DNA of 64,000 nt, taken from positions 96,001 to 160,000 of IMG/VR virus record IMGVR_UViG_3300025770_000006. One strand, 5' to 3'. The translations under genes and the position numbers were made by a program. Shown here piece after piece: positions 41,941 to 61,855 of the stretch. The notes under the pieces were generated by a model, which searched no databases, was not told the origin of the DNA, and saw only the letters and a program-made list of their open reading frames with translations. The DNA is from a virus. The number at the start of each line of letters is the position of its first letter. Position 1 is the first letter of the stretch.

Positions 41941-43542
41941 ATGGACAATAAGAAACTACTCGCTACGATTGAAAAGCTCAGAGAGATAAGAGTCAAAGAA
42001 GATCTTACCCCACCTGCTTGTAAGATGCTTAATACACATATGCCTAATGGTGGGGAGATAAAGCTAAGACAGTATCAGATACAAGGTGTGCTTCACCTTT
42101 TGGCAATGCCTAGATTCGTTCTAGGTGATGATACAGGACTTGGGAAAACCCTACAAGTAATCGCAACACTCGCTTATTTATGGGAAAAACGACCCGATAT
42201 ACCAGCAATCATCTGCACGACTAAGAGTGCTGTTGGTCAATGGGAATCCGAGTTCGATAAGTTCACTACAGGAGTAACGATCTTCAAATGCTTGGGGACT
42301 AAAAAGAAAAGAGCGAAAATCCATGCCGAGTTTAAAGAATTTGTGGGACCAAAAGCTATGGTCATGGGATATAGAACAGCAGTAAATGACTTTCAATACC
42401 TTCAAAGCATGACGGGTCATGTAATGGTCTTCGATGAAGCGACTGCTTTTAAAAATGATCGTGCTCAAGTTCACCAAGTCTGTCTACACCTTGCAGGTTC
42501 AGCAGAGCGTGTATGGTCTTTATCTGCAACCATCATTAAGAATAGACTCATGGAAGCATGGGCTATTTATAAGGTGACTGTCCCCCATATCTTTGGGAAT
42601 AAAACTAACTTTATGCGTGAGTATTGTATCACTAGAGATCAAACAATACCTGGTTCTCGTAGGCGTATTAAGATTGTGGTTGGACACCGTAAGCGTGATA
42701 TAGAAGCCTTTCGTGAACACATTGATCCTTACTTTTTAGGTAGACCAAAACATGAAGTCGCTAAAGAGTTACCCCCACTGACAACTAAAGTCATCCACTG
42801 TGATTTGAGTAAACCTCAAAAGAATAAGTATGCCGAAGCCCTACAAGGTCTACTTGAATACACAGACCCCGAAACTGGCGAGGTGATGGAGCGAGAAGTC
42901 ACGAAACTCACAGCAGTTACAGTTTGTCAGCAAATTGTAAACCACCCTGCACTTATCGACTGCGATGGGGAATCAGGTAAACTAGAGACTCTACTTGATG
43001 TTTTAGATAATGAACTTAACGGTGAAAAAGTGATTATCTTCTCTCGATTTAGGGGCATGATAGATATTCTTGAGGCAGAACTAGAAGCAAAGAAGATTAA
43101 AACCGTTCGTATCACTGGTACAGAGAATGGTAATCAGCGTATGGCTAGTCAAAAGGCATTTCAAGATGAGAAAGATGAGACTAAAGTTTGTCTCATTACA
43201 ATGGCGGCGGCTGAAGGTATTAATCTCCAACTCGCTAAAGCGGTTGTCTTTTATGACACCCCTTGGAGTGCTGGTGATTACTTGCAGATCATTGGTCGTA
43301 TGATTCGTATTGGATCAATTCACGAGAAGGTATTCAGTTATCATATCTGTGCTCCTAAGACCATTGATGAGCGTGTAATGAAAACCCTAAAGGCTAAGAT
43401 GGGTTTGATTGAAGCTGTCTTAGGAAAGCGTCTTAAAGAGGATGGGGAAGAAGACTCAATTCTTGAAGTCGGTCAATCCGAGATTGCTGATCTCTTTGAT
43501 GGTCTACTTGACGATGCGAGGGACATTATAAAAGTTAAGTAA
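41941..43542 (+). CDS. SNF2-family (SF2) helicase/ATPase
   Basis: LRQYQIQG, GDDTGLGKT, FDEA, SAT, EGINL, QIIGRMIRIG. Confidence 0.92.
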   Translation: MDNKKLLATIEKLREIRVKEDLTPPACKMLNTHMPNGGEIKLRQYQIQGVLHLLAMPRFVLGDDTGLGKTLQVIATLAYLWEKRPDIPAIICTTKSAVGQWESEFDKFTTGVTIFKCLGTKKKRAKIHAEFKEFVGPKAMVMGYRTAVNDFQYLQSMTGHVMVFDEATAFKNDRAQVHQVCLHLAGSAERVWSLSATIIKNRLMEAWAIYKVTVPHIFGNKTNFMREYCITRDQTIPGSRRRIKIVVGHRKRDIEAFREHIDPYFLGRPKHEVAKELPPLTTKVIHCDLSKPQKNKYAEALQGLLEYTDPETGEVMEREVTKLTAVTVCQQIVNHPALIDCDGESGKLETLLDVLDNELNGEKVIIFSRFRGMIDILEAELEAKKIKTVRITGTENGNQRMASQKAFQDEKDETKVCLITMAAAEGINLQLAKAVVFYDTPWSAGDYLQIIGRMIRIGSIHEKVFSYHICAPKTIDERVMKTLKAKMGLIEAVLGKRLKEDGEEDSILEVGQSEIADLFDGLLDDARDIIKVK

Positions 43543-43593: not shown

Positions 43594-44292
43594 ATGGATA
43601 AATGTAAAAAATGTGGTGGTGTAGGCTACACACAAAAAGATAATGGACACATGGGTATGCCTCAAGCTATCCAATGCGATTGTGTTATTGATAAAGCCCT
43701 AGATGAACAAGCAGAGAGGGCATGGACACATTTAAGCGTAGCTCCCATTCGCAAGCGTTCTATGCTTAACGGTAAGGTTTCTAAGAACCTTGTCATCACA
43801 GCCACTACAGATCAGTTGAGATTACATCTTAGATCTGCGTTAGGAAATCTTAGGAATCCTAATGTGTTTGTCAAAGTCATTGGGGATCACACGCTCATGT
43901 CTTCTTGGCTAGGGTCTATGATGATTCAAGGGAAAGACATAGCAGACCCAGACTTTCAGAGAGACTTAAAAGTTTACTCTTTGGATGACCTTGCTGAAGC
44001 ACCGTATCTCATGGTGATAAGGCTTGGTACAAAAGTAGCACGAAATGCGGCTATGTCTGAGGTCGTTGTTGAAACGATTGAGATTCGAGAACATTTGAAG
44101 AAACCTACTTGGCTTATCATTGATCCCGACAAACCACTTGAGGAAGGGCATATTGCATGGAGTCAATTATTAGAGGACACGATTCACCCTTGGGATCGTA
44201 TAAACCTTAATGAAAATACTTCCTCAAGTCGTACCCGAACTTCAAAGAAAAGCGTATCTAATATGGGGCAACATAAGCGAGTGAAACTATGA
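43594..44292 (+). CDS. DnaC-like helicase loader (N-terminal Zn ribbon, degenerate AAA+)
   Basis: CKKCGG...CDC; directly upstream of and overlapping DnaB; no intact Walker A. Confidence 0.55.
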   Translation: MDKCKKCGGVGYTQKDNGHMGMPQAIQCDCVIDKALDEQAERAWTHLSVAPIRKRSMLNGKVSKNLVITATTDQLRLHLRSALGNLRNPNVFVKVIGDHTLMSSWLGSMMIQGKDIADPDFQRDLKVYSLDDLAEAPYLMVIRLGTKVARNAAMSEVVVETIEIREHLKKPTWLIIDPDKPLEEGHIAWSQLLEDTIHPWDRINLNENTSSSRTRTSKKSVSNMGQHKRVKL

Positions 44293-45815
44293 GTGATATT
44301 TTAAGAAGCATACTCCCAGATGAGCCAAGAGGTGATGACCCTAAGCTCATGTTTCAAAACTACTGTTCTCTTAAGGAGTCTGTCTTACGCTTTGACTTAC
44401 CCTCAGAAGTCAATGTGTTCGAGTATGTTGAGGACTTCACTCTCAAGCATGGTCATTTACCTTCGCAACAGGGAGTTAGAGAATACTTTGAAGAGAATCA
44501 ATCCTTTGATGAAGCAGATCGTATTCAACAGATCGCTAACCGACCAGTCTCTTATCGAGGTGACTTTGTATCCCTAATCGAAAGACGAGTTGAAGAAGGT
44601 CGGATGACTAAGTTAGCTTCTGTTATGGCTGACGCTAAAGTCATCGCTCGTACAGGGCTTGAGGTTAAAGAAGGTCGGACAAAGAAGATCATTAAGGGTT
44701 CAAGGGATGCGGGGAACTTCCTACTCAATGAGATTGCTAAGATAAACACCCCTACCTTTGGCTCTCGTATCGGGGGAGAAATCTTAGGTGATGGTGAAGA
44801 CTTTTGGAATGAGTATGAACGCACTTGTAATAAACAAACTGACATCCTCCCACAAACAGGGCTATCTATTATTGATAATGCTATCGGTGGGTTCAAGAGA
44901 AAAGAACTATACATCATGGCGGCTTTTACAGGTCACCTTAAATCTACCTCAAGTTTAAATTGGGTTTACAATCAGTCTGTCTATGGAGGGACTGATACAC
45001 TGTATTTCTCTCTTGAAATGCACTATACTCAATGTAGACGCATCATCTATGTCTATCATTCTATGCACCCTAAGTTCCGAGATAAGCGTATCGCTTTGGG
45101 TATACAGCAGGGTCAAACAGATGCAGGTATTGATCCAGACAAGATCAAAAAGGGAACACTTACAGAAGATGAGCGTTCTTACATGAGAGATGTCATTGAA
45201 GATCTCGACAACGGTATGAAACAAGGAAATTATGGGTCAATCCACATTGAGGTTGCCGATCCCGATGTTCTTGACTTCACAGTTGAAAACATCCGTACTA
45301 GAGCCGAGCTACTTTATCAAAAGGCCCCTTTCAAGATGATGGTGGTAGACCATGCTTTATTGGTCTCCCCTCGTAAGTGGGTAGCGTCCACTACGGATCG
45401 GTTAAATGAGGTCATCAGAGATCTTAAAAAGACATCTCTTGGATTTAATCGTGGTGAAGGTATTCCTGTCTTATGTCTGTTTCAGATCAGTCGTGAGGGT
45501 TATAAGTCAGCCGAGAAAAACGGTGGGTCTTACAACCTCACTCACTTGAGTTATGCAAATGAAGCAGAGCGTTCTGCTGATCTTGTGATCTCAAGTTGGT
45601 ATGGTGATGATAAGCGTGAGAACAGTTTGGTTAAATACCAATGCCTCAAGTCTCGTGACCAAGCCCCCTTTGAAGAGTTTGACGCACAAATCGCTTGGCC
45701 TTATGGTCGTATCCTCGATATGCCTTTACAGTTCCAAACGAACACCTCTTATAAGAGCAAAGGTAAAAAGACTGAAGTGTTTGACGATCCTTTAGACGCT
45801 CTCATGGATCTGTAA
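44289..45815 (+). CDS. dnaB: DnaB-like replicative DNA helicase
   Basis: AAFTGHLKST, YFSLEM, VVDH, FQISRE, ERSADLV. Confidence 0.85.
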   Translation: MSDILRSILPDEPRGDDPKLMFQNYCSLKESVLRFDLPSEVNVFEYVEDFTLKHGHLPSQQGVREYFEENQSFDEADRIQQIANRPVSYRGDFVSLIERRVEEGRMTKLASVMADAKVIARTGLEVKEGRTKKIIKGSRDAGNFLLNEIAKINTPTFGSRIGGEILGDGEDFWNEYERTCNKQTDILPQTGLSIIDNAIGGFKRKELYIMAAFTGHLKSTSSLNWVYNQSVYGGTDTLYFSLEMHYTQCRRIIYVYHSMHPKFRDKRIALGIQQGQTDAGIDPDKIKKGTLTEDERSYMRDVIEDLDNGMKQGNYGSIHIEVADPDVLDFTVENIRTRAELLYQKAPFKMMVVDHALLVSPRKWVASTTDRLNEVIRDLKKTSLGFNRGEGIPVLCLFQISREGYKSAEKNGGSYNLTHLSYANEAERSADLVISSWYGDDKRENSLVKYQCLKSRDQAPFEEFDAQIAWPYGRILDMPLQFQTNTSYKSKGKKTEVFDDPLDALMDL

Positions 45816-47035
45816 TGTTCTTTGAAATCGACAAACCTAAACTCCCACCCCTCAAGGAGCTGAACCTATTAGATAAGAACAACGAGTTCTCGATTCCGTC
45901 CGACCTGTGGGCTTCTATCTTAGACCAATACACGAAGCAAGAAATCATCGAGCATTTTTCGGATCTTATTGAGAACACTCCTGTGCCTTTCCCCTATAGA
46001 GTCTACGGTCTTGGAAATGTCCGTAAGGACTACCTAGAGCTTTGCTCTGATACAGTGAAATGGGAAGAAGAAAGATGGGAGGCACTAAGGACACCTAAAG
46101 ACCTTCCTATGCTCTATAAGGACAGGCCGATACACCTCGATTACATAAGTAAAAAAGGACTGTCTGTGTCGGATATGTTCACACAAGAAATACGAATGGA
46201 GTGTGGACATAAGTCAAGCCCATCGCCCACTCGACAATGGGATCGGGTTGGATATAAATCAAAAGTTAGACCCATCTTAAAAGTCTTGATGGGATTGAAC
46301 TTAAGTAGAACACTGAGGAGTGGTGTGTATAAGACTGCCATGTTTGATTGCCTCCGACTTGGTAGGTACATGGCGAGTCAGTTTAAGCCCTCTTGTGCTA
46401 AAGCTATCTACGATTTCTTTGGTGCAAAGAAAGTGTTAGACTTCAGTGCTGGTTGGGGTGATAGGCTGGTTGGCTTTCATGCCTCTGATGCCGAGTCTTA
46501 CATCGGCATAGATCCAAATACTAGACTCCACATTCAGTATAAAAAGATCTCCTCATTCTGTAACACCGATAAGGAGGTTAGGTTCATCTGCTCTCCTGCT
46601 GAAGATGCAGACTTATCTGATGTTAAAGTAGACTTCATTTTTACAAGCCCTCCTTATTTTGATACCGAGAGATATAGCCAAGAAGGAACTCAGTCGTGGA
46701 AGAGATACCCGACAATGAATGGATGGTTGAGTGGATTTCTTTACCCTACCCTCAATAAGAGTTGGGAAGCGTTAGAGGAAGGGGGTCGGATAGCAATCAA
46801 TATAACTGATGTTCTTGATGGGAGTCATTACTTAGAAATCATCAAACCGATGATTGAGTACATGGAGGGCTTAGGTGCTACTTATGAAGGAGTAGTCGGA
46901 TATAGGACGAAAAAGAGACCAGGCGAAAATCAAGGGATTGTTGGAGGGAGCGTGTTCTGCGAACCTATCTTCATTTGGTCTAAGGGGGAAGCTCTCGAAC
47001 CTAAGTGGCATCAAGATAACTACTTCGGAGTTTGA
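45815..47035 (+). CDS. DNA amino-methyltransferase (N4-C/N6-A), paralog 1
   Basis: motif I DFSAGWGDR, motif IV FTSPPYF. Confidence 0.88.
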   Translation: MFFEIDKPKLPPLKELNLLDKNNEFSIPSDLWASILDQYTKQEIIEHFSDLIENTPVPFPYRVYGLGNVRKDYLELCSDTVKWEEERWEALRTPKDLPMLYKDRPIHLDYISKKGLSVSDMFTQEIRMECGHKSSPSPTRQWDRVGYKSKVRPILKVLMGLNLSRTLRSGVYKTAMFDCLRLGRYMASQFKPSCAKAIYDFFGAKKVLDFSAGWGDRLVGFHASDAESYIGIDPNTRLHIQYKKISSFCNTDKEVRFICSPAEDADLSDVKVDFIFTSPPYFDTERYSQEGTQSWKRYPTMNGWLSGFLYPTLNKSWEALEEGGRIAINITDVLDGSHYLEIIKPMIEYMEGLGATYEGVVGYRTKKRPGENQGIVGGSVFCEPIFIWSKGEALEPKWHQDNYFGV

Positions 47036-47132
47036 CTATGAGACTCATTTATACTGTAGCCTTTATAAGTACAATACCTGTAAAGAACGCAGGGAAAGCC
47101 TGCCTCAATGCAGTCAATCTTTAGGAGAATGA

Positions 47133-48338
47133 ATGTTTTTTGATTATGAAAAAAAAGCCAAAGATAAGATAGACGAATATGAGGTTGTAAGAGGACAAGA
47201 GATCTTCATACAACCTCATCAGTGGTCAGAGATGCTTGATAAGTTTACTCGTGATGAGATCATCACTTACTTATCAACTAAGATCGAAGGGATACCATTC
47301 CCATATACTAAATATACTCCTCAAGAGGTGCATCGTGATTGGTTAGATGTTCAGTCCGACTATATGACACCAGTGGCAGGAGAGTGGGGATTACCTCGAT
47401 GTCAGTTAGAGGATGCTCATACTTACAAAGGTAGGTATCTTTACTTCGCACCTAATAACAAAGGACTCAAAGTCTCTAATCAGTTCACCGAGTTCGCAAG
47501 AGTATTAGTAGACCATCGAGAATATAAAAGTGCCATGACTCAATGGACTCGAATAGGTATGAAGGGCGATAAGAGATACTTCCTTAGACCCTTTTTCACC
47601 CTATACGACAGGTCTAAAGGGGTTAATAGGAAAATGCTCTTTAACGCTATAAATATGTCTTATTACATACCTGCTCAGTTCAAACCAACACTCTCCAAAG
47701 CCATGTATAACTTCTTCGGGGCAAAGAAGGTCTTAGATTTCTCTATGGGATGGGGTGATAGGCTAGTTGGTTTCCTCGCTTCTGACGCTCTGTCGTATGT
47801 TGGTATTGACCCTAATACAAAACTCCATGAGCCTTATGGACAAATAGATTCGTACTGTAATGCAAACAAAGAAACTAAGTTCATTTGTTCTCCAGCTGAG
47901 GATGCTGACCTAACTGATGTTAAAGTAGACTTTATCTTCACAAGCCCTCCTTACTTTGATACCGAGAAGTATAGCCAAGAAGATACTCAGAGTTGGAAGA
48001 GATACCCCAAAACAGATGACTGGCTCAATGGATTTCTTTACCCGACACTCAAGAAATGTTGGGAGGTATTAGAAGACGGAGGACGGATCTGCGTCAATAT
48101 CTCAGACAAGGTTTATGGTGATATACGAGTATGCCAACCCATGATTGAATACATGGAGTCATTAGGTGCTACTTACGAGGGAGTGATTGGTTATAGGATG
48201 TCCAAGAGACCAGGAAATCACCATTCATTGAACGAGGATCTGTCTAAGGTAAGTGTTTTTTGCGAACCTATTTTCATTTGGAGTAAGGGAGAAGCCCCCG
48301 AACCTAAATGGAATCAAGATAACTTCTTTGGGGTATAA
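47133..48338 (+). CDS. DNA amino-methyltransferase, paralog 2
   Basis: DFSMGWGDR, FTSPPYF. Confidence 0.88.
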   Translation: MFFDYEKKAKDKIDEYEVVRGQEIFIQPHQWSEMLDKFTRDEIITYLSTKIEGIPFPYTKYTPQEVHRDWLDVQSDYMTPVAGEWGLPRCQLEDAHTYKGRYLYFAPNNKGLKVSNQFTEFARVLVDHREYKSAMTQWTRIGMKGDKRYFLRPFFTLYDRSKGVNRKMLFNAINMSYYIPAQFKPTLSKAMYNFFGAKKVLDFSMGWGDRLVGFLASDALSYVGIDPNTKLHEPYGQIDSYCNANKETKFICSPAEDADLTDVKVDFIFTSPPYFDTEKYSQEDTQSWKRYPKTDDWLNGFLYPTLKKCWEVLEDGGRICVNISDKVYGDIRVCQPMIEYMESLGATYEGVIGYRMSKRPGNHHSLNEDLSKVSVFCEPIFIWSKGEAPEPKWNQDNFFGV

Positions 48339-48367
48339 TCCTATAAGGGTCTTGAAAGGATTTAAGT

Positions 48368-49600
48368 ATGTTCTTTGATTATGAAAAAACCAAAAAAGAG
48401 AACCTTGAAGAGTATGAGGTTTTGAGAGGGAATGAGATCTTTATCCCACCCCATCAGTGGCTAGAGATGGTAGATAGTTTTAGTAGAGATGAGATCACTG
48501 ATTATCTGTCTGCAAAGATTGAAGATTTACCTTACCCCTTCACTAAGTACACACCACAAGAGATCAAGAAAGATTGGTTAGAGGTTCAGTCCGATTACAT
48601 GATCCCGATTGAGGGTGCTTGGGGATTGCCACGATGTCAGTTAGACGAAGACCATACTTACAAAGGTAGGTATATTTACTTCGCACCTAATAACAAAGGA
48701 CTCAAAGTCTCTAATCAATATAGTGAACCTATGCGTTTAGAGGTAGACCATAAGCAGTTCCCAAGTGCAATGAGACAATGGACACGAACTAACCTCAAGT
48801 CCAAAAAGAGAGCGTTCCTTAGACCTTTATGGACATTGTATGATCCGTCAAAAGGTGTGAACAGCAAGATACTTGTAAACGCTATCGGTATGTCTGGTTA
48901 TATCCCAGCACAGTTCAAACCTACTTTAGCTAAGGCGATGTATAACTTCTTCGGGGCTAAAAGAGTATTGGATTTCTCTATGGGATGGGGCGATAGATTA
49001 GTTGGATTCCTATCTTCTGATGCCGAGTCCTATGTAGGATTAGACCCTAATACAAAACTCCATGAGCCTTATCAGAAGATCGCTGATTATTGTTCTACGA
49101 GTAAGACCACTAGGTTCATCTGCTCTCCTGCCGAAGATGCAGACCTGTCTGATGTTAAAGTAGACTTCGTTTTCACGAGTCCACCTTATTTCGACACCGA
49201 GAAATATAGTCAGGAGGAGACTCAATCATGGAAGCGTTATCCAGAGACTGATGATTGGCTGAATGGGTTTCTTTACCCAACCCTCAAGAAATGTTGGGAT
49301 TGCTTAGAAGAGGGAGGGAGGATATGCGTAAACATCTCTGATAAAGTCAGAGGAAACATACGAGTGTGTCAGCCCATGATTGAGTATATGGAGTCATTAG
49401 GTGCTACTTATGAAGGCGTGATTGGTTATCGGATGGCAAAGAGGCCAGGAAACCACCACTCTTTAAATGATGAGTTGTCCAAGATGGATGTTTTCTGTGA
49501 GCCGATTTTCATTTGGAGTAAGGGAGAAGCCCCCGAACCTAAATGGAATCAAGATACTTACTTTGGGGTGTGTGAGGTCGGTCATGTGGGGAAACCTTGA
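48368..49600 (+). CDS. DNA amino-methyltransferase, paralog 3
   Basis: DFSMGWGDR, FTSPPYF; very similar to paralog 2. Confidence 0.88.
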   Translation: MFFDYEKTKKENLEEYEVLRGNEIFIPPHQWLEMVDSFSRDEITDYLSAKIEDLPYPFTKYTPQEIKKDWLEVQSDYMIPIEGAWGLPRCQLDEDHTYKGRYIYFAPNNKGLKVSNQYSEPMRLEVDHKQFPSAMRQWTRTNLKSKKRAFLRPLWTLYDPSKGVNSKILVNAIGMSGYIPAQFKPTLAKAMYNFFGAKRVLDFSMGWGDRLVGFLSSDAESYVGLDPNTKLHEPYQKIADYCSTSKTTRFICSPAEDADLSDVKVDFVFTSPPYFDTEKYSQEETQSWKRYPETDDWLNGFLYPTLKKCWDCLEEGGRICVNISDKVRGNIRVCQPMIEYMESLGATYEGVIGYRMAKRPGNHHSLNDELSKMDVFCEPIFIWSKGEAPEPKWNQDTYFGVCEVGHVGKP

Positions 49601-50510
49601 TGTATCTAACTTAGATGTATTGACTCCATACATCGAGTCTGCTTTAGAGAGAAATCTCCTGTATTACAATCTCAACCCTTTTGAATTCCTAGCCTTTAAA
49701 ACAAAAGGCAACTTGTTCAAGATTGAAAACAATACCTTACATTTTGGTTGGCATGGTGTAATCGGAGCGAGGTTCTTAAAGCTCTACTTCCCCCCTATTC
49801 ACTTATACGGTGATGAAGAGATTGAAAGGGAATCTGTTTTAAAAGCTACAAATGAGGGATGCTCTTTGTGGATCGAAAAGGAGCACTCGAAGGCTTTAGG
49901 TGTCAAAGCCAAAACTATCTCGGAGTATCGAGGAGCTTATCAGCCCATATACCATAGAGACTATCAACTAGCGGGTAAGAAATATAAAAATATGAGGAGA
50001 GATAGAAATATCCTCCATTCTCTCATTGAGAGTGGTGAGTTAGAGTTTGTATTTGACTACCCCTTAAAAGGTCTTACAGGACTCAATAATGCTTGGCTAA
50101 GTCAGACTGGTCGTAAAAGGTCTGTGTTTGACTTTTGTCTTCAGAACGAAAAGCACCTCACACACAGGATCAAAAACCTAACCCTACTTAACAGAGATGG
50201 TGAGCCTATCACATCCTCTCTGTACGCTATATATTCACCAGATAAATGGCATTGTATAGGTGCGATCTCGGACTATGGGAAGATACCTATTGGTGGGTTG
50301 CAAAGACAGTCTGATCTGTATCTGTTTGAGTTGGAGGAAAAAGTCAACTTAGTGATGGTTGGTGGGTATAGCTATAAAGAGCTGAAGTTCTCTAAATTGG
50401 CATTACCACACAGTGTTTATAGGTTAGGCACACTACCTTCCAATATAACTGTGACCAAAGATATATGGGAGTCCTTTAGACCGAAGCCTCAGACCTATTT
50501 TGGAGTGTGA
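49584..50510 (+). CDS. DUF2156/MprF-C-like (GNAT-fold) aminoacyl-transferase-like protein A, 308 aa
   Basis: start moved to MWGNL (GAGGT RBS); LAGKKYKNMRRDRN and KFSKLALP match the LxGxKYxxxRxxxN and KxxxxP blocks. Confidence 0.6.
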   Translation: MWGNLDVSNLDVLTPYIESALERNLLYYNLNPFEFLAFKTKGNLFKIENNTLHFGWHGVIGARFLKLYFPPIHLYGDEEIERESVLKATNEGCSLWIEKEHSKALGVKAKTISEYRGAYQPIYHRDYQLAGKKYKNMRRDRNILHSLIESGELEFVFDYPLKGLTGLNNAWLSQTGRKRSVFDFCLQNEKHLTHRIKNLTLLNRDGEPITSSLYAIYSPDKWHCIGAISDYGKIPIGGLQRQSDLYLFELEEKVNLVMVGGYSYKELKFSKLALPHSVYRLGTLPSNITVTKDIWESFRPKPQTYFGV

Positions 50511-50511
50511 A

Positions 50512-51435
50512 ATGTGGAACTACCTAACCCCCAAAGACTTTGAGACATTGATACCTTACTTAAAGAGTGCAATACAACGAGGGTGGAAGTATTACGATCT
50601 CTGTGTGATAGATCGTATGTGGTGTTATAATAATCAAATCCTCTTCAAGATAGAGAACGACATATTATATGTGTCTAGGTTGCACCGCTTCATTAATAAC
50701 TTAATCCATAAGATGCAGTTCCCTCCAATCCACTTGTACGGTGATGAGGAACTTGAAAAGAAAGCCTTGCTAGGAGCTTTGGAAATAGGTGTGTCCGTAA
50801 ACGCCACAAAGCAAGTCGCAAAAGACCTCGGATTAAAATACACCTTAATGAGTCAATGGGATGGTGGGTGTGAAGTGGTCTATACAAAAGACCATCTCAA
50901 AATGGACGGTAAAAAATATGCAAAGCGAAGAGGTGAGTTAAACAAAATCAAAAGGTTGATTTCTAGCGGTCAACTCATGGTCAAACTCGATAGTGATTTA
51001 GATTCTTTGTACGGTCTGTTTCAAACATGGAAAAGGCAACAAGGGTACAAAACAGGGATGTATGAATACCTCCTTAAAAACAAAGAATACTTACCCTACT
51101 TAAAAGTCTTTAGTGTGCGTAACTCTGATAAGGTAGTGTTTGCATCTGTGTTCCTAAACATCGACAAATCGACTTGGATTTCCCCTTGCTCAATGACGGA
51201 TTATGAAAATACAGTTAGTGGGTTTCAAAGACTCTCTAAGATCCTCCTGTTAGATATGCAGGAAGATTTAGAAACGATCATCGAAGGTGGGTGGGTCACA
51301 GAAGAAATCAAAAGAGGAAAGACATTGATCCCTCACGAGATATGGAGGATCGCTAAAATCATAAGCCCCAAAAAGCTCTCGAAGATTGAGTGGGAGAGTT
51401 TTAAGCCAAAACCGAATACCTACTTTGGAGTTTAA
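50512..51435 (+). CDS. DUF2156/MprF-C-like aminoacyl-transferase-like protein B, 307 aa
   Basis: start moved to MWNYL; MDGKKYAKRRGELN; shares FPPIHLYGDEE with protein A. Confidence 0.6.
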   Translation: MWNYLTPKDFETLIPYLKSAIQRGWKYYDLCVIDRMWCYNNQILFKIENDILYVSRLHRFINNLIHKMQFPPIHLYGDEELEKKALLGALEIGVSVNATKQVAKDLGLKYTLMSQWDGGCEVVYTKDHLKMDGKKYAKRRGELNKIKRLISSGQLMVKLDSDLDSLYGLFQTWKRQQGYKTGMYEYLLKNKEYLPYLKVFSVRNSDKVVFASVFLNIDKSTWISPCSMTDYENTVSGFQRLSKILLLDMQEDLETIIEGGWVTEEIKRGKTLIPHEIWRIAKIISPKKLSKIEWESFKPKPNTYFGV

Positions 51436-51436
51436 T

Positions 51437-53449
51437 ATGTTATTTGAAACAACATTCAACGCTGAGAGTTTCTACAAGAAGTTTACACCAATCTTAAAAG
51501 AGATCTCTGTACCAGAAAACTTAGTGCCGTTTGCAGAGTGCTTATCCGAGTATCACGAACTAGACTTAGATATTTCCGTTGAGCCTAAAGTATTTGTAGA
51601 TCCACAAGATGGTGGCGACCAAAAAAAAGCCATCGTTCTTTTATCTGGAGGGATTGATAGTGCTTGGTGTCTCTTATGGGCTTTAGAACAAGGTCTGAAT
51701 CCACAACCTTTATTTGTGGATGGGCTGAACGCTTCTCAAAACTCTCGTGAGCGTAAAGCTGTCCAAGTCTTATGTGATAAGCTAGACCTGCCCCTCATCA
51801 CATATAAACACCCAACCCATCTCAAAAAGCTACATAAAGATCCGTCTAATATATTCAAGATACCAGAGAGCTTTGTGAAACTACAGTATGCTCTGATGGC
51901 AATCAAAGATGACATACGAAAAGAGGGCATAGCAGGGGTCATTGTCACCTGCCCTACTAACCAACCCGAATACATTGACCCTACTGCACCTAAGAAAGAA
52001 AATGGGGAACCGCTGACATGGTTTCAAGACTCAGAAGAGTCTATGGAAACTTTCTTACCGTTCCTCTCCGATTATATTGGGTGGGGTTTTAAAGGATACT
52101 ACCCTGTCACCATGAAAGAGCAGAAGATAAAAGCTCTAATGGACAAAGGGATCTTTGAAGATACCTGCTCGTGCGTATGCAATCCTATGTTCTTTTCGGG
52201 TCATCGTAAGAGATCAAAACCCAAGTATTCCAATATGTGCGGCGTGTGTTGGAAGTGCAAAGAAAACCTAGCTTTCATCAGTAAACTTAACCGAGATGAT
52301 GAAGTCGTTGAAGATGAGATGCCAGAAGAGCCTCAAATGAAACCTTGGCAAAAAGGATATGAGTTAGATTATCTTAAAAGCGTAGAGGGTCAGTTCAACG
52401 CTTTTAATGACCTGTGTATTTCCCCATTCCTACAGATGAAAAAAAATAAAGTCGCAGACCACTTACACGATGGCACTTTAATCCTTAAAGACGGATTTAG
52501 GTGCATCCTTAAAAAGTCTAAAACTAGAACGAGTATAAAAGTGTACTCGAATAGGGATCACACCCTCGCTTATAAAGATGTAGGCGAGTTCGCTATGGGT
52601 AAGTTAGTCATTGATGATGTGAGTGAGTTTAAAGAATACTGCGATAAGATTGATCAGAACATTTGGGTCATCAGCTTTGACTCGATTGAGAAAGATCTTC
52701 TCTCATGCGGGTTTGTTAAGCTAGGATATAAATACACCTCCTTTGGTGATGATCTCACTGTGTTCCTTTTGCAAAAGCAAATCGACTTTTTCGGTACGAA
52801 CACAAATAGACTAATCTTTAATGACCCTTTAGAAAGAGCTACCTGTGTGAAACTCGACTCCAACTTTGAGGTTGAGTCCATCGCAGATAAGTTAGCCGCT
52901 TACGAATTTAAGAAGCACTACTCCAACTACAATAGTGGTGGGTGGTCAGCTATCAGTCTAAGAGGGTTTAGCGATGACCCCTCCTTCATTATCAAACCAG
53001 AAGAGATGAATGATAAATGGACGGAGCAAAACTCAGAGACAGATTTCTATCTGAGAGACACCGAAGCGTATGAATATTTTAGCGAGGTAAGGGAGATCAT
53101 AAACACAGTCGCCCCAAACCAAAAGATCGAGAGGGTGAGAATAATGAAGCTCTCTGAAGGATCTGAGATTAAAAAGCATACTGATCTAGTAGATCCAGAT
53201 TGTGGTGTCGGGGTAGGAGAAACAGCAAGGTTTCATGTGCCGATTAAAACAAAAGATGCTGTCTTTGAGGTATGGGGACAAAATGGTAAAGAGTCATTCT
53301 CTTTAGAGAAGGGTTCTCTATGGTATCTCGACACAAGAAAACCACACCGAGTCATTAACCCAACCAGCGATAGATACCATCTTGTTTTTGATGTCTTTGT
53401 TGATCAAGAAATAAGAGAACTTATCAAGAGATGCTTAAATGTTCTTTGA
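51437..53449 (+). CDS. fusion of a QueC-like PP-loop ATPase, a central (GNAT-like?) domain and an Asp/Asn beta-hydroxylase-type 2OG-Fe(II) dioxygenase, 670 aa
   Basis: VLLSGGIDS, CSC...CGVCWKC; HTD...RFHVP...PHRVIN...RYHLVFD. Confidence 0.8.
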   Translation: MLFETTFNAESFYKKFTPILKEISVPENLVPFAECLSEYHELDLDISVEPKVFVDPQDGGDQKKAIVLLSGGIDSAWCLLWALEQGLNPQPLFVDGLNASQNSRERKAVQVLCDKLDLPLITYKHPTHLKKLHKDPSNIFKIPESFVKLQYALMAIKDDIRKEGIAGVIVTCPTNQPEYIDPTAPKKENGEPLTWFQDSEESMETFLPFLSDYIGWGFKGYYPVTMKEQKIKALMDKGIFEDTCSCVCNPMFFSGHRKRSKPKYSNMCGVCWKCKENLAFISKLNRDDEVVEDEMPEEPQMKPWQKGYELDYLKSVEGQFNAFNDLCISPFLQMKKNKVADHLHDGTLILKDGFRCILKKSKTRTSIKVYSNRDHTLAYKDVGEFAMGKLVIDDVSEFKEYCDKIDQNIWVISFDSIEKDLLSCGFVKLGYKYTSFGDDLTVFLLQKQIDFFGTNTNRLIFNDPLERATCVKLDSNFEVESIADKLAAYEFKKHYSNYNSGGWSAISLRGFSDDPSFIIKPEEMNDKWTEQNSETDFYLRDTEAYEYFSEVREIINTVAPNQKIERVRIMKLSEGSEIKKHTDLVDPDCGVGVGETARFHVPIKTKDAVFEVWGQNGKESFSLEKGSLWYLDTRKPHRVINPTSDRYHLVFDVFVDQEIRELIKRCLNVL

Positions 53450-54614
53450 ATATAAGACTGAACTTAACTCACTAGACGACATTGAATATATTAAAGATGG
53501 CTATCTTCACATACGCCCTAACGAATGGAGTATGCTTCGTGAGAAATATACTAAGGAAGATATCAAAGACCATATCGCACCCATCGTTGAGTCTTTACCT
53601 TATCCTTACTCTGAGTACACAACGGAGTCTGCAAAGAAGGACTTCATAAGCCTCAAAGCGAAAAAAGAGCCATTCGTATTTGATGAATGGGTAGCACCAC
53701 GCCAAGCTACTCCCCTAGAGACTACTTATCTAGGTAAGCACATTTACCTCAACAGCTATTACAAAGGTAAAGAGGTGTCTAACCTGTTCACTCAAGAACA
53801 GAGGATGAAATGTAGCTATCGCACACAAGGTAACTCACCTTATGACGAATGGGTCAACGCTAGTAAGAATAACTCGTTCCTACGATGCTTCTTCGGTATC
53901 TGTGAAAATGACATTTATGAGAGGGGTGGGGTCAATAAACAAACCCTTAGAAGAGCATTGAAGATGCACACATATATGGCTAGTCAGTTCAAAGCTGAGT
54001 CTGCTAAAGCTCTCTATGATCTGTTCCAATCTAAAAGCGTCTTAGATTTCTCAGCAGGTTGGGGTGATAGGTTAGTAGGCTTCCTAGCTTCAAATGCCGA
54101 CTCCTATATTGGGATTGATCCTAATACTAAGCTCCATGAACCATATCAGCAAATCGTCAACCTCTGTGATACAGGTAAAGAGGTTAGGTTTATTTGCTCA
54201 CCTGCTGAAAATGCTGACCTCTCTGATGTCAAAGTAGACTTTATCTTTACGAGCCCACCATACTTTGACATCGAAAGGTACAGTACAGAGTCCACACAAT
54301 CATGGAAGCGATACCCAGACCTTAAGGATTGGGTCAATGATTTCTTACTCGCTACCCTCACCAAGTGCTGGTCTGCACTTAAAGATGGTGGCCGGATAGC
54401 CATCAACATTGCGGATAAAAAAGGAGAGGACATCTGCACTCCTATGCTTGAACACATGAAGAATTTAGGGGCTACATATGAAGGGGTGATAGGATATCGA
54501 ATGTCTGAGCGTGGTGGTCAGAAAACAGATTGCCCTACTTGTGAGCCGATCTTTATTTGGAGTAAGGGTTTAACACCCGAACCTAAATGGAATTATAATG
54601 AGTATTTTTTTTGA
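53439..54614 (+). CDS. DNA amino-methyltransferase, paralog 4
   Basis: DFSAGWGDR, FTSPPYF. Confidence 0.88.
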   Translation: MFFEYKTELNSLDDIEYIKDGYLHIRPNEWSMLREKYTKEDIKDHIAPIVESLPYPYSEYTTESAKKDFISLKAKKEPFVFDEWVAPRQATPLETTYLGKHIYLNSYYKGKEVSNLFTQEQRMKCSYRTQGNSPYDEWVNASKNNSFLRCFFGICENDIYERGGVNKQTLRRALKMHTYMASQFKAESAKALYDLFQSKSVLDFSAGWGDRLVGFLASNADSYIGIDPNTKLHEPYQQIVNLCDTGKEVRFICSPAENADLSDVKVDFIFTSPPYFDIERYSTESTQSWKRYPDLKDWVNDFLLATLTKCWSALKDGGRIAINIADKKGEDICTPMLEHMKNLGATYEGVIGYRMSERGGQKTDCPTCEPIFIWSKGLTPEPKWNYNEYFF

Positions 54615-54623
54615 AGAGGTGTT

Positions 54624-55751
54624 ATGCAGTTATTTAACTACAAAAAAATAGGAGGTCAGACCCTTAAATCAAAAGTGGTCTTAGATCCTGTCGTTGAAAA
54701 AGTAGCAAGTGAGTCCGACTATAAGTTCAATGGTGAAACTTCATTTGTTGTACCTGAGTTTGATGTTCCTCCCGACTTCACATTAGGAGTGATATATGGG
54801 CCGAGTGGTTCGGGTAAGTCTACCCTCTTAAAAGAATTCGGAGAAGAAGCTGTTGGAGCATGGGATCAATCTTTAGCTATAGCTTCTCAAGTAGACCCAA
54901 ACCTACTCTTGAGACTCGGATTATCGTCTATCCCCTCTCTTTGCAGACCATATCATGTCTTAAGCACAGGTGAGAAACATAGAGCTGATATAGCTAAAAA
55001 CCTAACAAATGGATGTGTCATAGATGAGTTCACTTCTGTGTGTAATCGAGACTTCGCTCAATCAATCTCTGTGGGACTGAGGAAAGTCATAGATCATTAC
55101 GGATATAAAAATGTGGTCATCGCTACCTGCCACGAAGATGTCATAAATTGGTTAGAACCAGATTGGGTTGCTAACACATTAACGAGGCGGCTCGTAGAAG
55201 GGAGGTCGGAAAGGCGATCTTCAACTTTTAGAGTTCTACCTTGCTCAGTCGAAGTCTGGTCAATCTTCAGCGACCATCATTATCTGAGTGGAGATCTCAA
55301 CAAGGGTGCTCATTGTTGGCTACTCATCAACGAAAATAATACAATCTGTGGCTTCATGTCTGCGATTGCATTACCAGGAGGGAATGTACGCAATGCTTGG
55401 AGAACACATCGAACAGTAATCTTACCCGACTTTCAAGGTATGGGATTAGGGTCAAGACTGTCTAATGCTATAGCTAAGATGTACTACGATAAAGGATGTC
55501 GATTCTTCGGTAAAACTGCACACCCAAAGCTCGGTGAACATCGAAACAACTCTGAACTATGGAAACCCACAAGGAATAATAGAGTCAGCAACAAGAGTAT
55601 GTCCTATGAAAAAATGAAGGACTCCAAATACTCTAAAAAGTTTCTGCAAAAGCACAACAATAGAGTATGTTATGCACATGAATATATTGGCGATGGAACT
55701 ATGAACTTGAAAGGTCAAGAGCCAAAAAAAGAGCATACTCCATTCTTTTGA
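54624..55751 (+). CDS. ABC-type ATPase fused to a GNAT acetyltransferase
   Basis: GPSGSGKST, LSTGE signature, IDEFTS; RTVILPDFQGMGLG acetyl-CoA motif. Confidence 0.85.
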   Translation: MQLFNYKKIGGQTLKSKVVLDPVVEKVASESDYKFNGETSFVVPEFDVPPDFTLGVIYGPSGSGKSTLLKEFGEEAVGAWDQSLAIASQVDPNLLLRLGLSSIPSLCRPYHVLSTGEKHRADIAKNLTNGCVIDEFTSVCNRDFAQSISVGLRKVIDHYGYKNVVIATCHEDVINWLEPDWVANTLTRRLVEGRSERRSSTFRVLPCSVEVWSIFSDHHYLSGDLNKGAHCWLLINENNTICGFMSAIALPGGNVRNAWRTHRTVILPDFQGMGLGSRLSNAIAKMYYDKGCRFFGKTAHPKLGEHRNNSELWKPTRNNRVSNKSMSYEKMKDSKYSKKFLQKHNNRVCYAHEYIGDGTMNLKGQEPKKEHTPFF

Positions 55752-55781
55752 TTTCTTATAACCATAGTGAGGAGTGAGACT

Positions 55782-56129
55782 ATGAGTTTAGAAGAACTAC
55801 TAAAAAGAAATCGGGTGCAACTGCAAAAGAAGCAGGGCGACTATCTGTACTTCATCCAGTCAAGCAAAACAGGGATGATAAAGATAGGTCGATCTAAACA
55901 CCCTAAGAAGAGACTCAAACAACTTCAAACAGGGAACTCAAATACGCTCCGTATTATCGCCTCATTTGAAGGTTTAGGGTGGAGGGAACCCCACCTACAC
56001 GAAGACCTCAAAAAGTGGCGTATACGCCAAAATGGAGAGTGGTTTCACCATGATTGTGTCGGGTCGATCCCTACTGATCTATATGAGATGATCGAATGGG
56101 GAGCGTTTGATGACTGGTGGAAACCTTAA
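55782..56129 (+). CDS. GIY-YIG superfamily (T5orf172/MUG113-like) protein
   Basis: YLYFIQ...IKIGRS..PKKRLKQLQTGN...GEWF. Confidence 0.8.
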   Translation: MSLEELLKRNRVQLQKKQGDYLYFIQSSKTGMIKIGRSKHPKKRLKQLQTGNSNTLRIIASFEGLGWREPHLHEDLKKWRIRQNGEWFHHDCVGSIPTDLYEMIEWGAFDDWWKP

Positions 56130-57469: not shown

Positions 57470-58471
57470 TCAATCCTCGTCATATTCCTGTTGAGCGAGG
57501 ATTAACATACCCTTAGAGACAGCATGGAGAGGGTCTGACGCATGACGAACCTCTGAGATCTCGATAGGGAAACGCTTTTTCTTAGTCTCAAAGACCTCCC
57601 TAAAGAAGTCCATGAATCCACCTGCGAGACTTGTACCACCACCCACTACGATTGGAATGGGTTTGTTAAGGGTGAGGTGTCCACCTTTCATCACAAACTG
57701 CTGTGCGATGTTATCTAAAGCGTGTTCAATAAGAGCCTTATAATAGAACGAGATCGCTTCTTCTTCTCTATTCTTAGGTGCTTTAAGGTCAATGCCCTTC
57801 TCTTTTACCGCACACATTTTAGAAGCTGTTGCACCTACTGATCGAGCCGCTCCTTGATCAATCCAATCACCACCACGAGCAACGGAGAAGGATAACCCCT
57901 CAATGGTGCTGATAGCGAGAGCGATATTGGTCATACCAGAACCGAAACTAATCCCGACACCAGAAAAACCTTCCTTTGCAGTCTCTGCGAAGACGATAGC
58001 CATAGCTTCGTTGGCGGGGTGTGCAGTATATCCACATTCTTGAACGATGCGAGTGAATACACCCTTATGATAAACAACATCCATATTAGCGTCCACAGGA
58101 GCCGCAGGGATTGAGAAATAACAATGCTCTCCCTCATGGCTAGGGTCACCGAGAACATCTTTGACCATATGTCCGAGAACGGTAAGGGAGTCGATCTCAT
58201 CAGCAGAGATAAGACCTGCTTTAAGGGGTCTACGACCTTCTCTACCGAACATATTAGCTACTTCCATAGCTTCATCCCCAAGTACAAGTAGATTGTCGTC
58301 AGCTTCGATGTATGACACCGAGCCGAGTTTGAGCATCTTTTTAGCCGAAGATGGGAGATCAATAAAGAGGTCACGCATCCTTCTTAGAGTTACTTCATTT
58401 TTCTTAGCACCACTCATGCGAGCAGACACCAAGTTCATAGTTCCAATGTCAAGTCCTACACCTTTACTCAT
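57470..58471 (-). CDS. actin-like ATPase (MreB/ParM/FtsA superfamily)
   Basis: phosphate-1 GLDIGT, connect-1 NEAMA, phosphate-2 ISFGSGMT, adenosine VGGGTS. Confidence 0.85.
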   Translation of the reverse strand: MSKGVGLDIGTMNLVSARMSGAKKNEVTLRRMRDLFIDLPSSAKKMLKLGSVSYIEADDNLLVLGDEAMEVANMFGREGRRPLKAGLISADEIDSLTVLGHMVKDVLGDPSHEGEHCYFSIPAAPVDANMDVVYHKGVFTRIVQECGYTAHPANEAMAIVFAETAKEGFSGVGISFGSGMTNIALAISTIEGLSFSVARGGDWIDQGAARSVGATASKMCAVKEKGIDLKAPKNREEEAISFYYKALIEHALDNIAQQFVMKGGHLTLNKPIPIVVGGGTSLAGGFMDFFREVFETKKKRFPIEISEVRHASDPLHAVSKGMLILAQQEYDED

Positions 58472-60191: not shown

Positions 60192-60656
60192 ATGAGCGAT
60201 AAATGGAAAGCAGGACCTGAAGTCCAAGAGCAGATTAATCATCTCATCGGAAACGCACACCCACACTTGGCTGACATCATGAATGACATTGTAGTCATCT
60301 TTAAAGAGAAGTGTTCACGCAAGGGTGGTCGCCCTATTCTCGGTAAGACCTCAAAAGCACCAGGGATCTTGTCTGTCCTTGGGGATCACGCATACGAGTT
60401 TGTCATTGAGCTTGGGGCAGACTGTTGGAACAACCTTAAAGAGAATGAGCGTATGGCTCTACTTGACCATCTTCTCTGCTTCATCGGAGGTGAAGAAGAC
60501 GAGAAATCGGGTGAGATGAAGTATTATCTCTCGACTCCCGATGTCTTTTATTTCTCTGAGGAAGTTGCTCGTAATGGGAGTTGGCGTGAGGAGATCCTAC
60601 CCGATGGTGTACCCGAAGAGGGTTCAGACGCACCTTTGTTAGACCCTATCGGTTAA
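60192..60656 (+). CDS. phage metallopeptidase-like protein with a degenerate HExxH motif
   Basis: ALLDHLLCF in place of ALxDHELxH; GGAGG RBS. Confidence 0.65.
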   Translation: MSDKWKAGPEVQEQINHLIGNAHPHLADIMNDIVVIFKEKCSRKGGRPILGKTSKAPGILSVLGDHAYEFVIELGADCWNNLKENERMALLDHLLCFIGGEEDEKSGEMKYYLSTPDVFYFSEEVARNGSWREEILPDGVPEEGSDAPLLDPIG

Positions 60657-61231
60657 AGGTCTAACCACCTTTTGAGTTCATTGCGATAGTTCTCACCCTT
60701 GTTGATGTAGTGGCTAACGATTTCATTAGACATGAACCTCATGTGGCATCCGATTGTCCAACGAAGATCACCCTTTCGATCAATCGAAGCATTTTCAAGT
60801 GTCAACATGAAATGGGGATCTTCAGACCCATCAAGAAGTGTTCCTGACTGTAGCACTCGCCGATAATCCCCACCGCTCAGTTTAAATGCCTTTCGTCTAG
60901 GGTCAAACTTTACATACTTTGGGAAAGTCTTATCAAAGGATTCTGATACGGTACCATCAGTATCGAGCTTATGTAGTGATGAAAGAATCTTCATAATATC
61001 TACAACTTCGTCATACAACTCGATATACAACTCTTGGGTAGGGGTGGTTTCTTCTTCTTGTCCAAAGTAATCATCTTTAAAAATCTTTGAGTCATCTTCA
61101 TAGTATGATCTCTCTGCGTCATACATATTAGAGTCAAAATAACCTTGTGGGTATCCTGCTGTCCTTTGGTTTTCAAGACGAGCGATTCTTGACTCAAGGT
61201 TTCTGATTACTTCTGATGCTGATCTTCTCAT
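60653..61231 (-). CDS. MRRSASE-leader protein 6 (192 aa)
   Basis: MRRSASEVIRNLESRIARLENQRTA; TAGTTTACCTAT motif at 61286-61297. Confidence 0.85.
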   Translation of the reverse strand: MRRSASEVIRNLESRIARLENQRTAGYPQGYFDSNMYDAERSYYEDDSKIFKDDYFGQEEETTPTQELYIELYDEVVDIMKILSSLHKLDTDGTVSESFDKTFPKYVKFDPRRKAFKLSGGDYRRVLQSGTLLDGSEDPHFMLTLENASIDRKGDLRWTIGCHMRFMSNEIVSHYINKGENYRNELKRWLDL

Positions 61232-61315
61232 GGGCTGTTCCTTTCATATAAGAACAATGGTATAAAAACACACCTAATGTTAATTATAGGTAAACTATTA
61301 AAAAGGAGTATTGAT

Positions 61316-61801: not shown

Positions 61802-61855
61802 GGTTTATAAACTGTTTATAATCTCCTTTAGTTATAAAAACTGAGGTTAGTTTAT

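Follow-up and report, generated by a model that had tools for sequence, protein, structure and literature searches.

What is accomplished by a run of methyltransferase genes, interleaved with enzymes of quite different families, that lies directly behind the replicative helicase gene of a phage? The question is raised by a 64,000-nt stretch of an uncultured marine giant phage (IMG/VR record IMGVR_UViG_3300025770_000006, positions 96,001 to 160,000), referred to as the window. Ten closely packed genes occupy positions 44289-56129 of the window, all on the plus strand, and the resulting island was compared with at least 15 related loci, which carry L-numbers below. The island reads as a multi-layer DNA-modification locus, in which an array of paralogous methyltransferases (MTs) would be combined with stacked aminoacylation, cupin/QueC and acylation modules that dock through a shared tail; we place this reading a little above even. 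An earlier note on this DNA described a co-oriented, tightly spaced run behind DnaB (four SPPY MTs, two DUF2156-like genes, a QueC/2OG-Fe(II) fusion, an ABC-ATPase/GNAT fusion and a GIY-YIG-like gene), and this is what the window contains:

44289-45815, plus strand: DnaB-family replicative helicase (PF03796, E 1e-15).
45815-47035, plus strand: MT1, a helical N-terminal domain followed by an SPPY amino-methyltransferase domain; the tail ends NYFGV.
47133-48338, plus strand: MT2, a paralog of MT1 (PF01555, 38.1 bits); the tail ends NFFGV.
48368-49600, plus strand: MT3, a paralog; a YFGV tail is followed by 9 extra residues.
49584-50510, plus strand: DUF2156/Fem-type tandem-GNAT protein A, 308 residues, soluble; the tail ends TYFGV.
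50512-51435, plus strand: DUF2156/Fem-type tandem-GNAT protein B, 307 residues (PF09924, E 1e-3); the tail ends TYFGV.
51437-52336, plus strand: QueC-family PP-loop ATPase domain, residues 1-300 of a fusion protein, ending in an acidic linker.
52337-53449, plus strand: middle domain and cupin 2-oxoglutarate/Fe(II) hydroxylase (PF05118), residues 301-670 of the same fusion.
53439-54614, plus strand: MT4, a paralog; the tail ends EYFF.
54624-55751, plus strand: ABC-ATPase fused to a GNAT domain, with Walker A GPSGSGKST and signature LSTGE; the tail ends TPFF.
55767-56129, plus strand: T5orf172/MUG113 (GIY-YIG-related) protein (PF10544, E 2.6e-9), the conserved right border of the island.

Intergenic gaps range from -17 to +97 nt, and several stop and start codons overlap, as in the TAATG that joins the DnaB stop to the MT1 start. 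A promoter and terminator scan of the window gave no signal above shuffled controls, so the operon structure is read from gene spacing alone. A megablast search with the island among 50,697 phage records returned no match.

In close relatives the borders of the island are fixed. DnaB is 88-92% identical across L006, L008, L078, L080 and L082, and T5orf172 is 87-94% identical at the same border in these loci; in the more distant L012 the corresponding values are 58% and 63%. The content of the slot in relatives is as follows:

L008 and L011: three MTs with a thymidylate-synthase-like gene, an Asn-synthase-like PP-loop gene and a pyridoxal phosphate (PLP) enzyme gene.
L006: four MTs between the flanks with the ThyA-like/PP-loop/PLP trio, and two further MTs upstream of DnaB.
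L012: an MT, a Dam-like D12 MT, a full-length beta-class MT, an MT and ABC/GNAT.
L082: two MTs and a standalone QueC-like gene.
L080: the set of the window minus ABC/GNAT.
L078: MTs, one DUF2156-like gene, an ABC/GNAT remnant, a T5orf172 remnant, a standalone Mid-Cupin gene (middle domain plus cupin), a PALP-like gene and an MT.

Conserved flanks around changing content define a hypervariable slot between DnaB and T5orf172, not one fixed pathway. The constant content is an array of 2-7 paralogous MTs; the DUF2156-like plus cupin, QueC-like and ABC/GNAT modules come and go independently. The earlier note had suggested methylation, hydroxylation and then aminoacylation or acetylation; as a single linear pathway this is not supported, since every module can be found without the rest and none of the four non-methylase genes is present in the closest relatives (DnaB 91-92% identical). 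The note's broader idea, a DNA-modification locus tied to replication genes, is supported by the other occupants of the slot in relatives, which include the ThyA-like/PP-loop/PLP genes, D12 Dam-like MTs and full-length beta-class PF01555 methylases (E 2e-41). The non-methylase genes also keep company with MTs elsewhere: an MT adjoins the QueC-like gene in 5 of 6 contexts, the DUF2156-like genes in 3 of 3 and, within this lineage, ABC/GNAT in all 4. The lack of such co-occurrence, which the earlier note had named as counting against its idea, is therefore not what is seen. A second lineage (L004, L084) carries its array beside PolA, together with ABC/GNAT and a standalone QueC-like gene.

Cassette turnover has left traces in L078. 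At L078:10968-11305, a 66-residue open reading frame (ORF) corresponds to the last 44 residues of ABC/GNAT, and a 46-residue ORF to the first 46 of T5orf172 (89% identical). Behind them come an insertion made up of Mid-Cupin, a PALP-like gene and an MT, and then a further T5orf172, this one intact; the remnants record a cassette insertion at the ABC/GNAT-T5orf172 junction. The trio found inside the arrays of the closest relatives (L006:13612-16022, L008:11210-13620, L005:7577-9997) consists of a ThyA-like protein (PF00303), an Asn-synthase/QueC-like PP-loop protein (PF00733) and a PLP enzyme (PF00291). It looks like a different hypermodification module in the same slot, perhaps one based on hydroxymethyl-pyrimidine.

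A short C-terminal tail connects the enzymes of the island. The pattern [LFYWM][FY]G[VIL]-COOH ends 36 of 1379 distinct ORFs from all loci, and 35 of the 36 are island enzymes belonging to four unrelated families: gamma-like MTs, Dam-like MTs, DUF2156-like proteins and ABC/GNAT proteins. Within the window it is confined to cluster genes. The consensus is QDN[FY]FGV, usually QDNFFGV, with one Dam-like copy ending QLDLFGL; a related [FY]FF-type ending is borne by MT4-type MTs, beta-class MTs and the window's own ABC/GNAT. The QueC-like, Mid-Cupin, ThyA-like, PP-loop and PLP proteins are without it. Tail codons differ synonymously in nearly every gene, so selection acts on the peptide, and an origin of the tails as recombination scars or DNA-level repeats was rejected on this ground. 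The tail is good evidence that its bearers share a partner or a location with bona fide DNA methylases. The sole non-enzyme ORF bearing it, at L014:11652-12041, encodes a 129-residue protein directly after a methylase, with an MRR-type N-terminal leader (MTRMRRTSAK) and a YFGV tail.

The opposite ends of the proteins also resemble one another. An N-terminal start of the form M(x)[FL]F(D/E)[YF] is common to unrelated island proteins (MTs, QueC-like, ABC/GNAT) in the window and in relatives, and occurs in the window at 45815, 47133, 48368, 51437, 53439 and 54624. Its DNA form, ATGTTCTTTGAA, holds an out-of-frame TGA that ends the upstream gene at the QueC/MT4 junction. This start may be a peptide signal or a translational-coupling device.

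The MTs form a single paralogous family. MT2, MT3 and MT4 share 51-55% identity with MT1; the paralogs hardly differ across the catalytic half, and variation is greater in the N-terminal ~190 residues. Motif I (DFSxGWGDR) and motif IV (TSPPYF) are invariant across 44 family members. Although three of the four window MTs score above the PF01555 cut-off around SPPY, motif I lies ahead of motif IV, and these enzymes are therefore not beta-class; they match only positions 1-110 of the 221 in the profile, whereas the true beta-class MTs of L004 and L012 match positions 1-221. MT1 has an ortholog of 88% identity in L078, and the MT beside the QueC-like gene is of the MT4 type in every locus. The family is large and uncharacterized, with no described member, and is confined to virus-sized metagenome contigs: it comprises at least 2549 clusters, all metagenomic, with the longest contigs at most 375 kb, and IMG/VR contains at least 537 matches to it, typically arrayed as 1-7 paralogs. 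No cultured-phage member was found at full length. Sequence and profile searches of the PDB with the family returned nothing significant, and NCBIfam returned sub-threshold matches only, the weak CmoB-like ones falling at the S-adenosylmethionine (SAM)-binding motif and not being interpreted. Dam-like and beta-class MTs bearing the tail too are interleaved with them, which provides a DNA-substrate context, and each paralog probably methylates a different short DNA motif, most likely to N4-methylcytosine or N6-methyladenine.

MT3 differs from its ortholog in L008 (96% identical), which stops at SYFGV. In the window the stop codon after YFGV is lost, apparently via an extra TG (49555-49600), and the frame reads into the DUF2156-like start; the 9-residue extension thus arose where the inserted DUF2156-like gene joins MT3 and the stop codon has disappeared.

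The two DUF2156/Fem-type proteins are 34% identical to each other. Scored directly against PF09924, copy B reaches 18.7 bits (cut-off 27.5) and copy A gives no match; 16 of 30 members of the extended DUF2156-like family match it, the best with E 1.4e-10, and PF09924 membership is supported transitively through them as well as by the predicted fold. The top Foldseek matches of copy B (2hqy, FemX, Sbb17, MprF and A-/L-PGS) agree with a two-lobed tandem-GNAT fold. In VIA-align comparisons, the low-confidence model of copy B matches 2hqy with Z 10.0 and a root-mean-square deviation of 3.9 over 198 residues aligned within model residues 1-270, Sbb17 with Z 9.1 and L-PGS with Z 8.3 over 182 aligned residues. 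The basic GKKYxxxR helix is present in the DUF2156-like proteins, and a PDB sequence and profile search with the family gave nothing significant. The family is tiny, with 4 clusters in a 5.8-billion-protein set and, in a set of 1.84 billion proteins, 29 representatives. Family membership suggests that aminoacyl-tRNA would be the donor. A 956-residue library protein, P0049, was considered as an MT/DUF2156 Rosetta-stone fusion; it has a PF01555 match towards the C-terminal side at residues 374-419, followed by a DUF2156-like stretch at 463-604, and both matches are too weak to count.

The fusion gene (51437-53449, 670 residues) has three parts: a QueC-like domain, a middle domain and a cupin. 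The QueC-like domain carries SGGIDS (SSGIDS in some members) and four invariant cysteines, C(x)21CGVCWKC. It scores 24 bits against PF06508 (cut-off 22), and its best solved relatives by profile search of the PDB are Cap9 (3e-6) and QueC (3e-5). The family aligns to the first ~60 QueC profile positions only, and the score against TIGR00364, the NCBIfam QueC equivalog, is 16.1 bits for a cut-off of 150.3. In relatives the QueC-like domain is a standalone protein of 285-293 residues.

The cupin part scores 37.2 bits against PF05118 (cut-off 22.6) with the HxD...H iron triad intact, the H-T-D and the distal His being invariant in 4 homologs, including gp4 of the cultured Mycobacterium phage LilMcDreamy. 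A standalone Mid-Cupin of 367 residues in L078 is 87% identical to fusion residues 301-667. LilMcDreamy gp4 is a Mid-Cupin homolog (E 1e-25) and follows a ParB-like gp1, a weakly TET/JBP-like gp2 and ADDT (gp3, PF18724), an order that recurs in two IMG/VR actinophage loci and fits the ParB-dependent T-dioxygenase hypermodification layout described in PMC13229309. The record names LilMcDreamy gp2 (L088:855-1787) a queuine tRNA-ribosyltransferase and Pfam gives a weak Tet_JBP match alone (E 0.002); gp1-gp3 look like a ParB-dependent T-dioxygenase cluster, and the gp2 annotation may be wrong.

In L089 the Mid-Cupin and QueC-like proteins are encoded by adjacent separate genes, in the order opposite to the fusion. 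The Mid-Cupin is thus linked to two unrelated kinds of amino-acid-attaching enzyme, ADDT in actinophages and the DUF2156-like proteins here, and to the QueC-like domain, which suggests that it tailors an amino-acid adduct and not a methyl group. Hydroxylation of a methyl group is not supported; given these partners, an amino-acid adduct is the likelier substrate. Oxidation of MT-installed N-methyl groups by the cupin was considered and is less likely, as the cupin keeps company with amino-acid-attaching enzymes and is present, in L089 and in actinophages, where MTs are absent.

The ABC-ATPase/GNAT protein matches phrog_11143 over residues 14-358 (E 1e-86) and PF00583 with 31.1 bits (cut-off 20.7). 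The phrog_11143 family is present in 76 phage records, and in Streptococcus prophage 315.4 the gene has a ParB-domain gene on one side and an ASCH gene on the other. Aravind's group predicted that this module acylates a DNA base (PMC7824862, citing Iyer 2013, NAR gkt573).

Taken together, these components suggest how the island might work. It would be expressed as a tight operon behind DnaB. The paralogous SAM-dependent amino-MTs, with gamma-like motif order and SPPY, would each methylate their own short motif and together blunt many host restriction systems. The DUF2156/Fem-type pair may transfer an amino acid from aminoacyl-tRNA to a DNA base amine or to an existing adduct, as Mom does with Gly-tRNA; the tRNA-dependent DNA aminoacylation shown for Mom (PMC13219725) is a precedent. 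The cupin would then hydroxylate the appended amino acid, and the fused QueC-family ATPase would use ATP to activate or amidate a carboxylate on the adduct. The ABC-ATPase/GNAT protein would scan DNA and acylate a base, and the common aromatic tail would dock the polymer-acting enzymes on one hub at replicating DNA. The function of such an island would be anti-restriction.

Several observations weigh against the DNA-modification island. The closest relatives do without the four non-methylase genes. The AlphaFold2 (AF2) model of copy B has low confidence (predicted local distance difference test, pLDDT, 59.8), and the substrates of known DUF2156/Fem enzymes are lipids, peptidoglycan precursors or natural products, none being known to act on DNA. 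In many phages ABC/GNAT is present where these methylases are not, and the QueC-like/Mid-Cupin pair of L089 has no methylase within 8 kb. The MT domain is nearest by fold to RNA guanine-N2 methyltransferases, with no DNA methylase among its top 50 fold matches, and some family members are named RsmD in JGI records.

The strongest of the three rivals, each of which fits the context less well, holds that only the MTs modify DNA and that the DUF2156-like, QueC-cupin and ABC/GNAT proteins are cargo in a recombination hot spot, serving host takeover or anti-defence. Their targets would then be host proteins, lipids, cell-wall precursors or small-molecule signals, for example in interference with QueC-family defence systems such as type IV CBASS (cyclic-oligonucleotide-based antiphage signaling system) or Qat. 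We regard this as unlikely, though it deserves the most weight among the alternatives. The absence of the four genes from the nearest relatives means that they are dispensable and could be unrelated cargo, and the independent gain and loss of modules, the turnover recorded by the L078 remnants, the non-DNA substrates of known DUF2156/Fem enzymes and the solitary ABC/GNAT of many phages all suit it. QueC-family proteins moreover work in defence as protein ligases (PMC13329287), and Cap9 is the best PDB match. Unrelated cargo would, however, not be expected to bear the same peptide-conserved tail as Dam-like and gamma-like methylases, as the DUF2156-like and ABC/GNAT proteins do; all other occupants of the slot in relatives belong to DNA-modification families, and the Mid-Cupin is independently tied to ADDT clusters.

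A more specific form of the DNA-modification island names the hub. Fem/MprF-type loading from tRNA to DNA would be followed by cupin/QueC tailoring, with the transferases, methylases and ABC/GNAT clamp-tethered at the replication fork; we hold this only tentatively and think it rather improbable in full. Trm11-like methylases that write N2-methylguanine in DNA are a sub-option of it. The beta clamp is a candidate partner of the tail: bacterial proteins bind it through the motif QL[SD]LF, which the endings QDNFFGV and QLDLFGL resemble, and DNMT1 uses a PIP box to bind PCNA. When the final 40 residues of MT2 were modelled in complex with the clamp of E. coli, a stand-in for the host protein, the score was 0.39 and that of the best control 0.00, which is weak support. 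Of 78 solved complexes 51 came up to this mark, as did 2 of 108 mismatched pairs; at 0.60 or under, it was attained by only 5 of the 78 and by each of the 4 mismatches to pass. At least 82% of contacts are the same between runs, with partner pLDDT of at least 42; clamp-peptide complexes are already solved, so a model pass may reflect memory. In 4 related viral contigs, neither the beta clamp N-domain (PF00712) nor T4 gp45 (PF02916) was found, the gp45 search having no positive control.

A further rival assigns the cluster to host or phage tRNA or rRNA, through Trm11/RsmD-like N2-guanine MTs, a QueC-family enzyme, tRNA-binding DUF2156-like proteins and a TmcA-like ATPase-GNAT. The AF2 model of MT2, built from the 44-sequence alignment, is confident (pLDDT 90.6) with a mostly helical N-terminal domain, and its catalytic domain matches best aTrm11 (Z 15.9), TrmN (15.8), Trm11 (15.0) and Trm14 (14.8). 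To these matches and the RsmD names can be added an RNA-repair-type HAD protein (HAD_SAK_1) after the QueC-like gene in L004 and L084, and TmcA itself, a P-loop plus GNAT enzyme that acetylates cytidine in tRNA (PMC13219725). The fold scores are, however, tied with those of generic methyltransferases: generic Rossmann enzymes lie within 1 Z unit of the best match (unrelated O-methyltransferases, 14.9), so the fold leaves the MT substrate undecided. Pfam detects no THUMP or other RNA-binding domain in the 4 window MTs, and no tRNA genes were found in the window. Arrays of up to 7 paralogs suit sequence-specific DNA methylases better than RNA methylases; the arrays also have D12 and full-length PF01555 methylases and a ThyA-like gene set among the MTs, bona fide DNA methylases share the tail, and the island is located between DnaB, PolA and SNF2 genes. 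RNA modification is accordingly given a low probability.

Least probable of all is a role for the QueC-like/cupin protein in a 7-deazaguanine DNA pathway (a dPreQ0, dADG or dCDG derivative) with DpdA, FolE, QueD and QueE encoded elsewhere or host-supplied: the SGGxDS and Cys4 zinc motifs, Cap9 and QueC as best solved relatives and the phages known to make 7-deazaguanine DNA (literature cited in PMC13329287) favor it, but the equivalog score and the short profile match stand against it, the constant partners are methylases and the cupin rather than deazaguanine genes, no TGT/DpdA (PF01702) was found in 4 related viral contigs, including the 71-kb QueC-like contig and a complete relative of 375,691 bp, and, as the earlier note had stated for the window, no QueD, QueE, FolE or TGT match occurs among the 47 window ORFs scanned.

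The genes to the left of the island are conserved as well:

41941-43542, plus strand: SNF2-family helicase (PF00176, E 7e-37; PF00271), the conserved left flank of the island.
43594-44292, plus strand: Zn-ribbon protein of 232 residues, directly upstream of DnaB.

SNF2 is 87-92% identical in L006, L008, L078 and L082, and the 232-residue protein is conserved at 88-92% beside DnaB in relatives. The label 'DnaC-like' that the earlier note gave to the latter is not borne out, since it has no Walker A/P-loop and no Pfam, PHROG or NCBIfam match.

As its relatives show, the window belongs to a marine jumbo-phage lineage; the phage is roughly 375 kb, and the related contig of 375,691 bp is rated complete. 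Elsewhere in the window, a 3039-residue ORF without a Pfam match (6699-15818, plus strand) occupies a region where GC skew is very strong (0.29-0.43). A PAPS-reductase/DndC-like PP-loop protein (21517-22377, minus strand; PF01507, E 2e-27) is a further candidate nucleic-acid modification enzyme. An actin-like protein (57470-58471, minus strand) matches Pfam Volactin with E 5e-75, which is unexpected in a phage because the family was defined in archaea. Positions 60192-62539 encode a phage metallopeptidase (PF18894), a MazG-like nucleotide pyrophosphohydrolase (PF03819) and a calcineurin-like phosphoesterase (PF00149); the MazG-like protein could help remove canonical or unwanted dNTPs.

For each domain family of the island a link to nucleic-acid modification is known or predicted, and phage hypermodification clusters of modular build are familiar. 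New are the uncharacterized MT family with its arrays, Fem/MprF-type enzymes in such a role, the Mid-Cupin/QueC-like pair and the common tail. If the proposed chemistry and tethering are correct, the island would represent a second, independent tRNA-dependent route of DNA hypermodification, and its enzymes would be the first phage DNA modifiers tethered as a set to a clamp. Work on phage DNA hypermodification is active, new chemistries becoming tools for sequencing, labelling and restriction-resistant DNA, and here several enzyme families stand together and can be cloned from metagenome sequence: a very large virus-only MT family, what may be a second family of DNA aminoacyl transferases that depend on tRNA, following closely on the solution of Mom, a tailoring cupin in common with actinophage thymidine-hypermodification clusters, and a new branch of the QueC family. 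The related phages with differing slot content amount to a natural experiment in the assembly of anti-restriction repertoires, and the shared tail offers a concrete, testable idea of how many modifiers might be recruited to newly made DNA.

Among the closest known systems is Mom of phage Mu, likewise a phage enzyme of the GNAT superfamily, which aminoacylates a DNA base from aminoacyl-tRNA after replication and so evades restriction (PMC13219725). Mom is a single small GNAT of another family, whereas the island encodes two paralogous tandem-GNAT proteins of ~307 residues, coupled to a hydroxylase and a PP-loop ATPase, whose mechanism is predicted from sequence. In thymidine hypermodification, 5-hydroxymethyldeoxyuridine passes through a kinase and ADDT/aGPT-Pplase to tailoring enzymes (PMC5889632, PMC8989533, PMC13229309). 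Like the proposed island, these clusters are modular, attach amino acids to bases after replication and then tailor them; further points in common are the Mid-Cupin family, directly after ADDT in such clusters, and, in relatives of the window, the ThyA-like/PP-loop/PLP trio in the same slot. They differ in that the window shows no ThyA-like, TET/JBP, kinase or ADDT gene; ADDT forms an N-alkyl linkage to the C5-methylene, whereas the putative tRNA-dependent GNAT proteins would form an acyl linkage to an amine. The predicted ABC-ATPase plus GNAT system is of the same family as the island protein, which is 36% identical to the copy of Tenacibaculum phage pT24, a phage named in PMC7824862, but here the gene lies within a methylase array, and the copies of relatives bear the island tail.

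The QueC family (PF06508: QueC, Cap9, QatC) shares SGGxDS and the Cys4 zinc motif with the island domain and activates carboxylates with ATP (PMC13329287). QueC itself has C(x)8 by the motif definition given there, whereas the island domain has C(x)21CxxCxxC and a conserved N-terminal extension of ~65 residues, and its fusion partner or neighbor is a cupin hydroxylase, without deazaguanine genes. The branch is not among the clusters described in the consulted text of the PMC13329287 survey. Proteins with beta-clamp motifs resemble the tail-bearing enzymes in having a short Q-led aromatic motif at the extreme C-terminus of DNA-acting enzymes; the usual form in the island is QDN[FY]FGV or just [FY]FF, unlike QL[SD]LF. 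Finally, the C-terminal domain of MprF, FemXAB and Sbb17/Sba18 (PF09924) share the tandem-GNAT fold and the GKKYxxxR helix with the DUF2156-like pair, and differ from it in that the island proteins are without a membrane domain, belong to a tiny family, stand in a phage DNA-modification context and carry the aromatic C-terminal tail.

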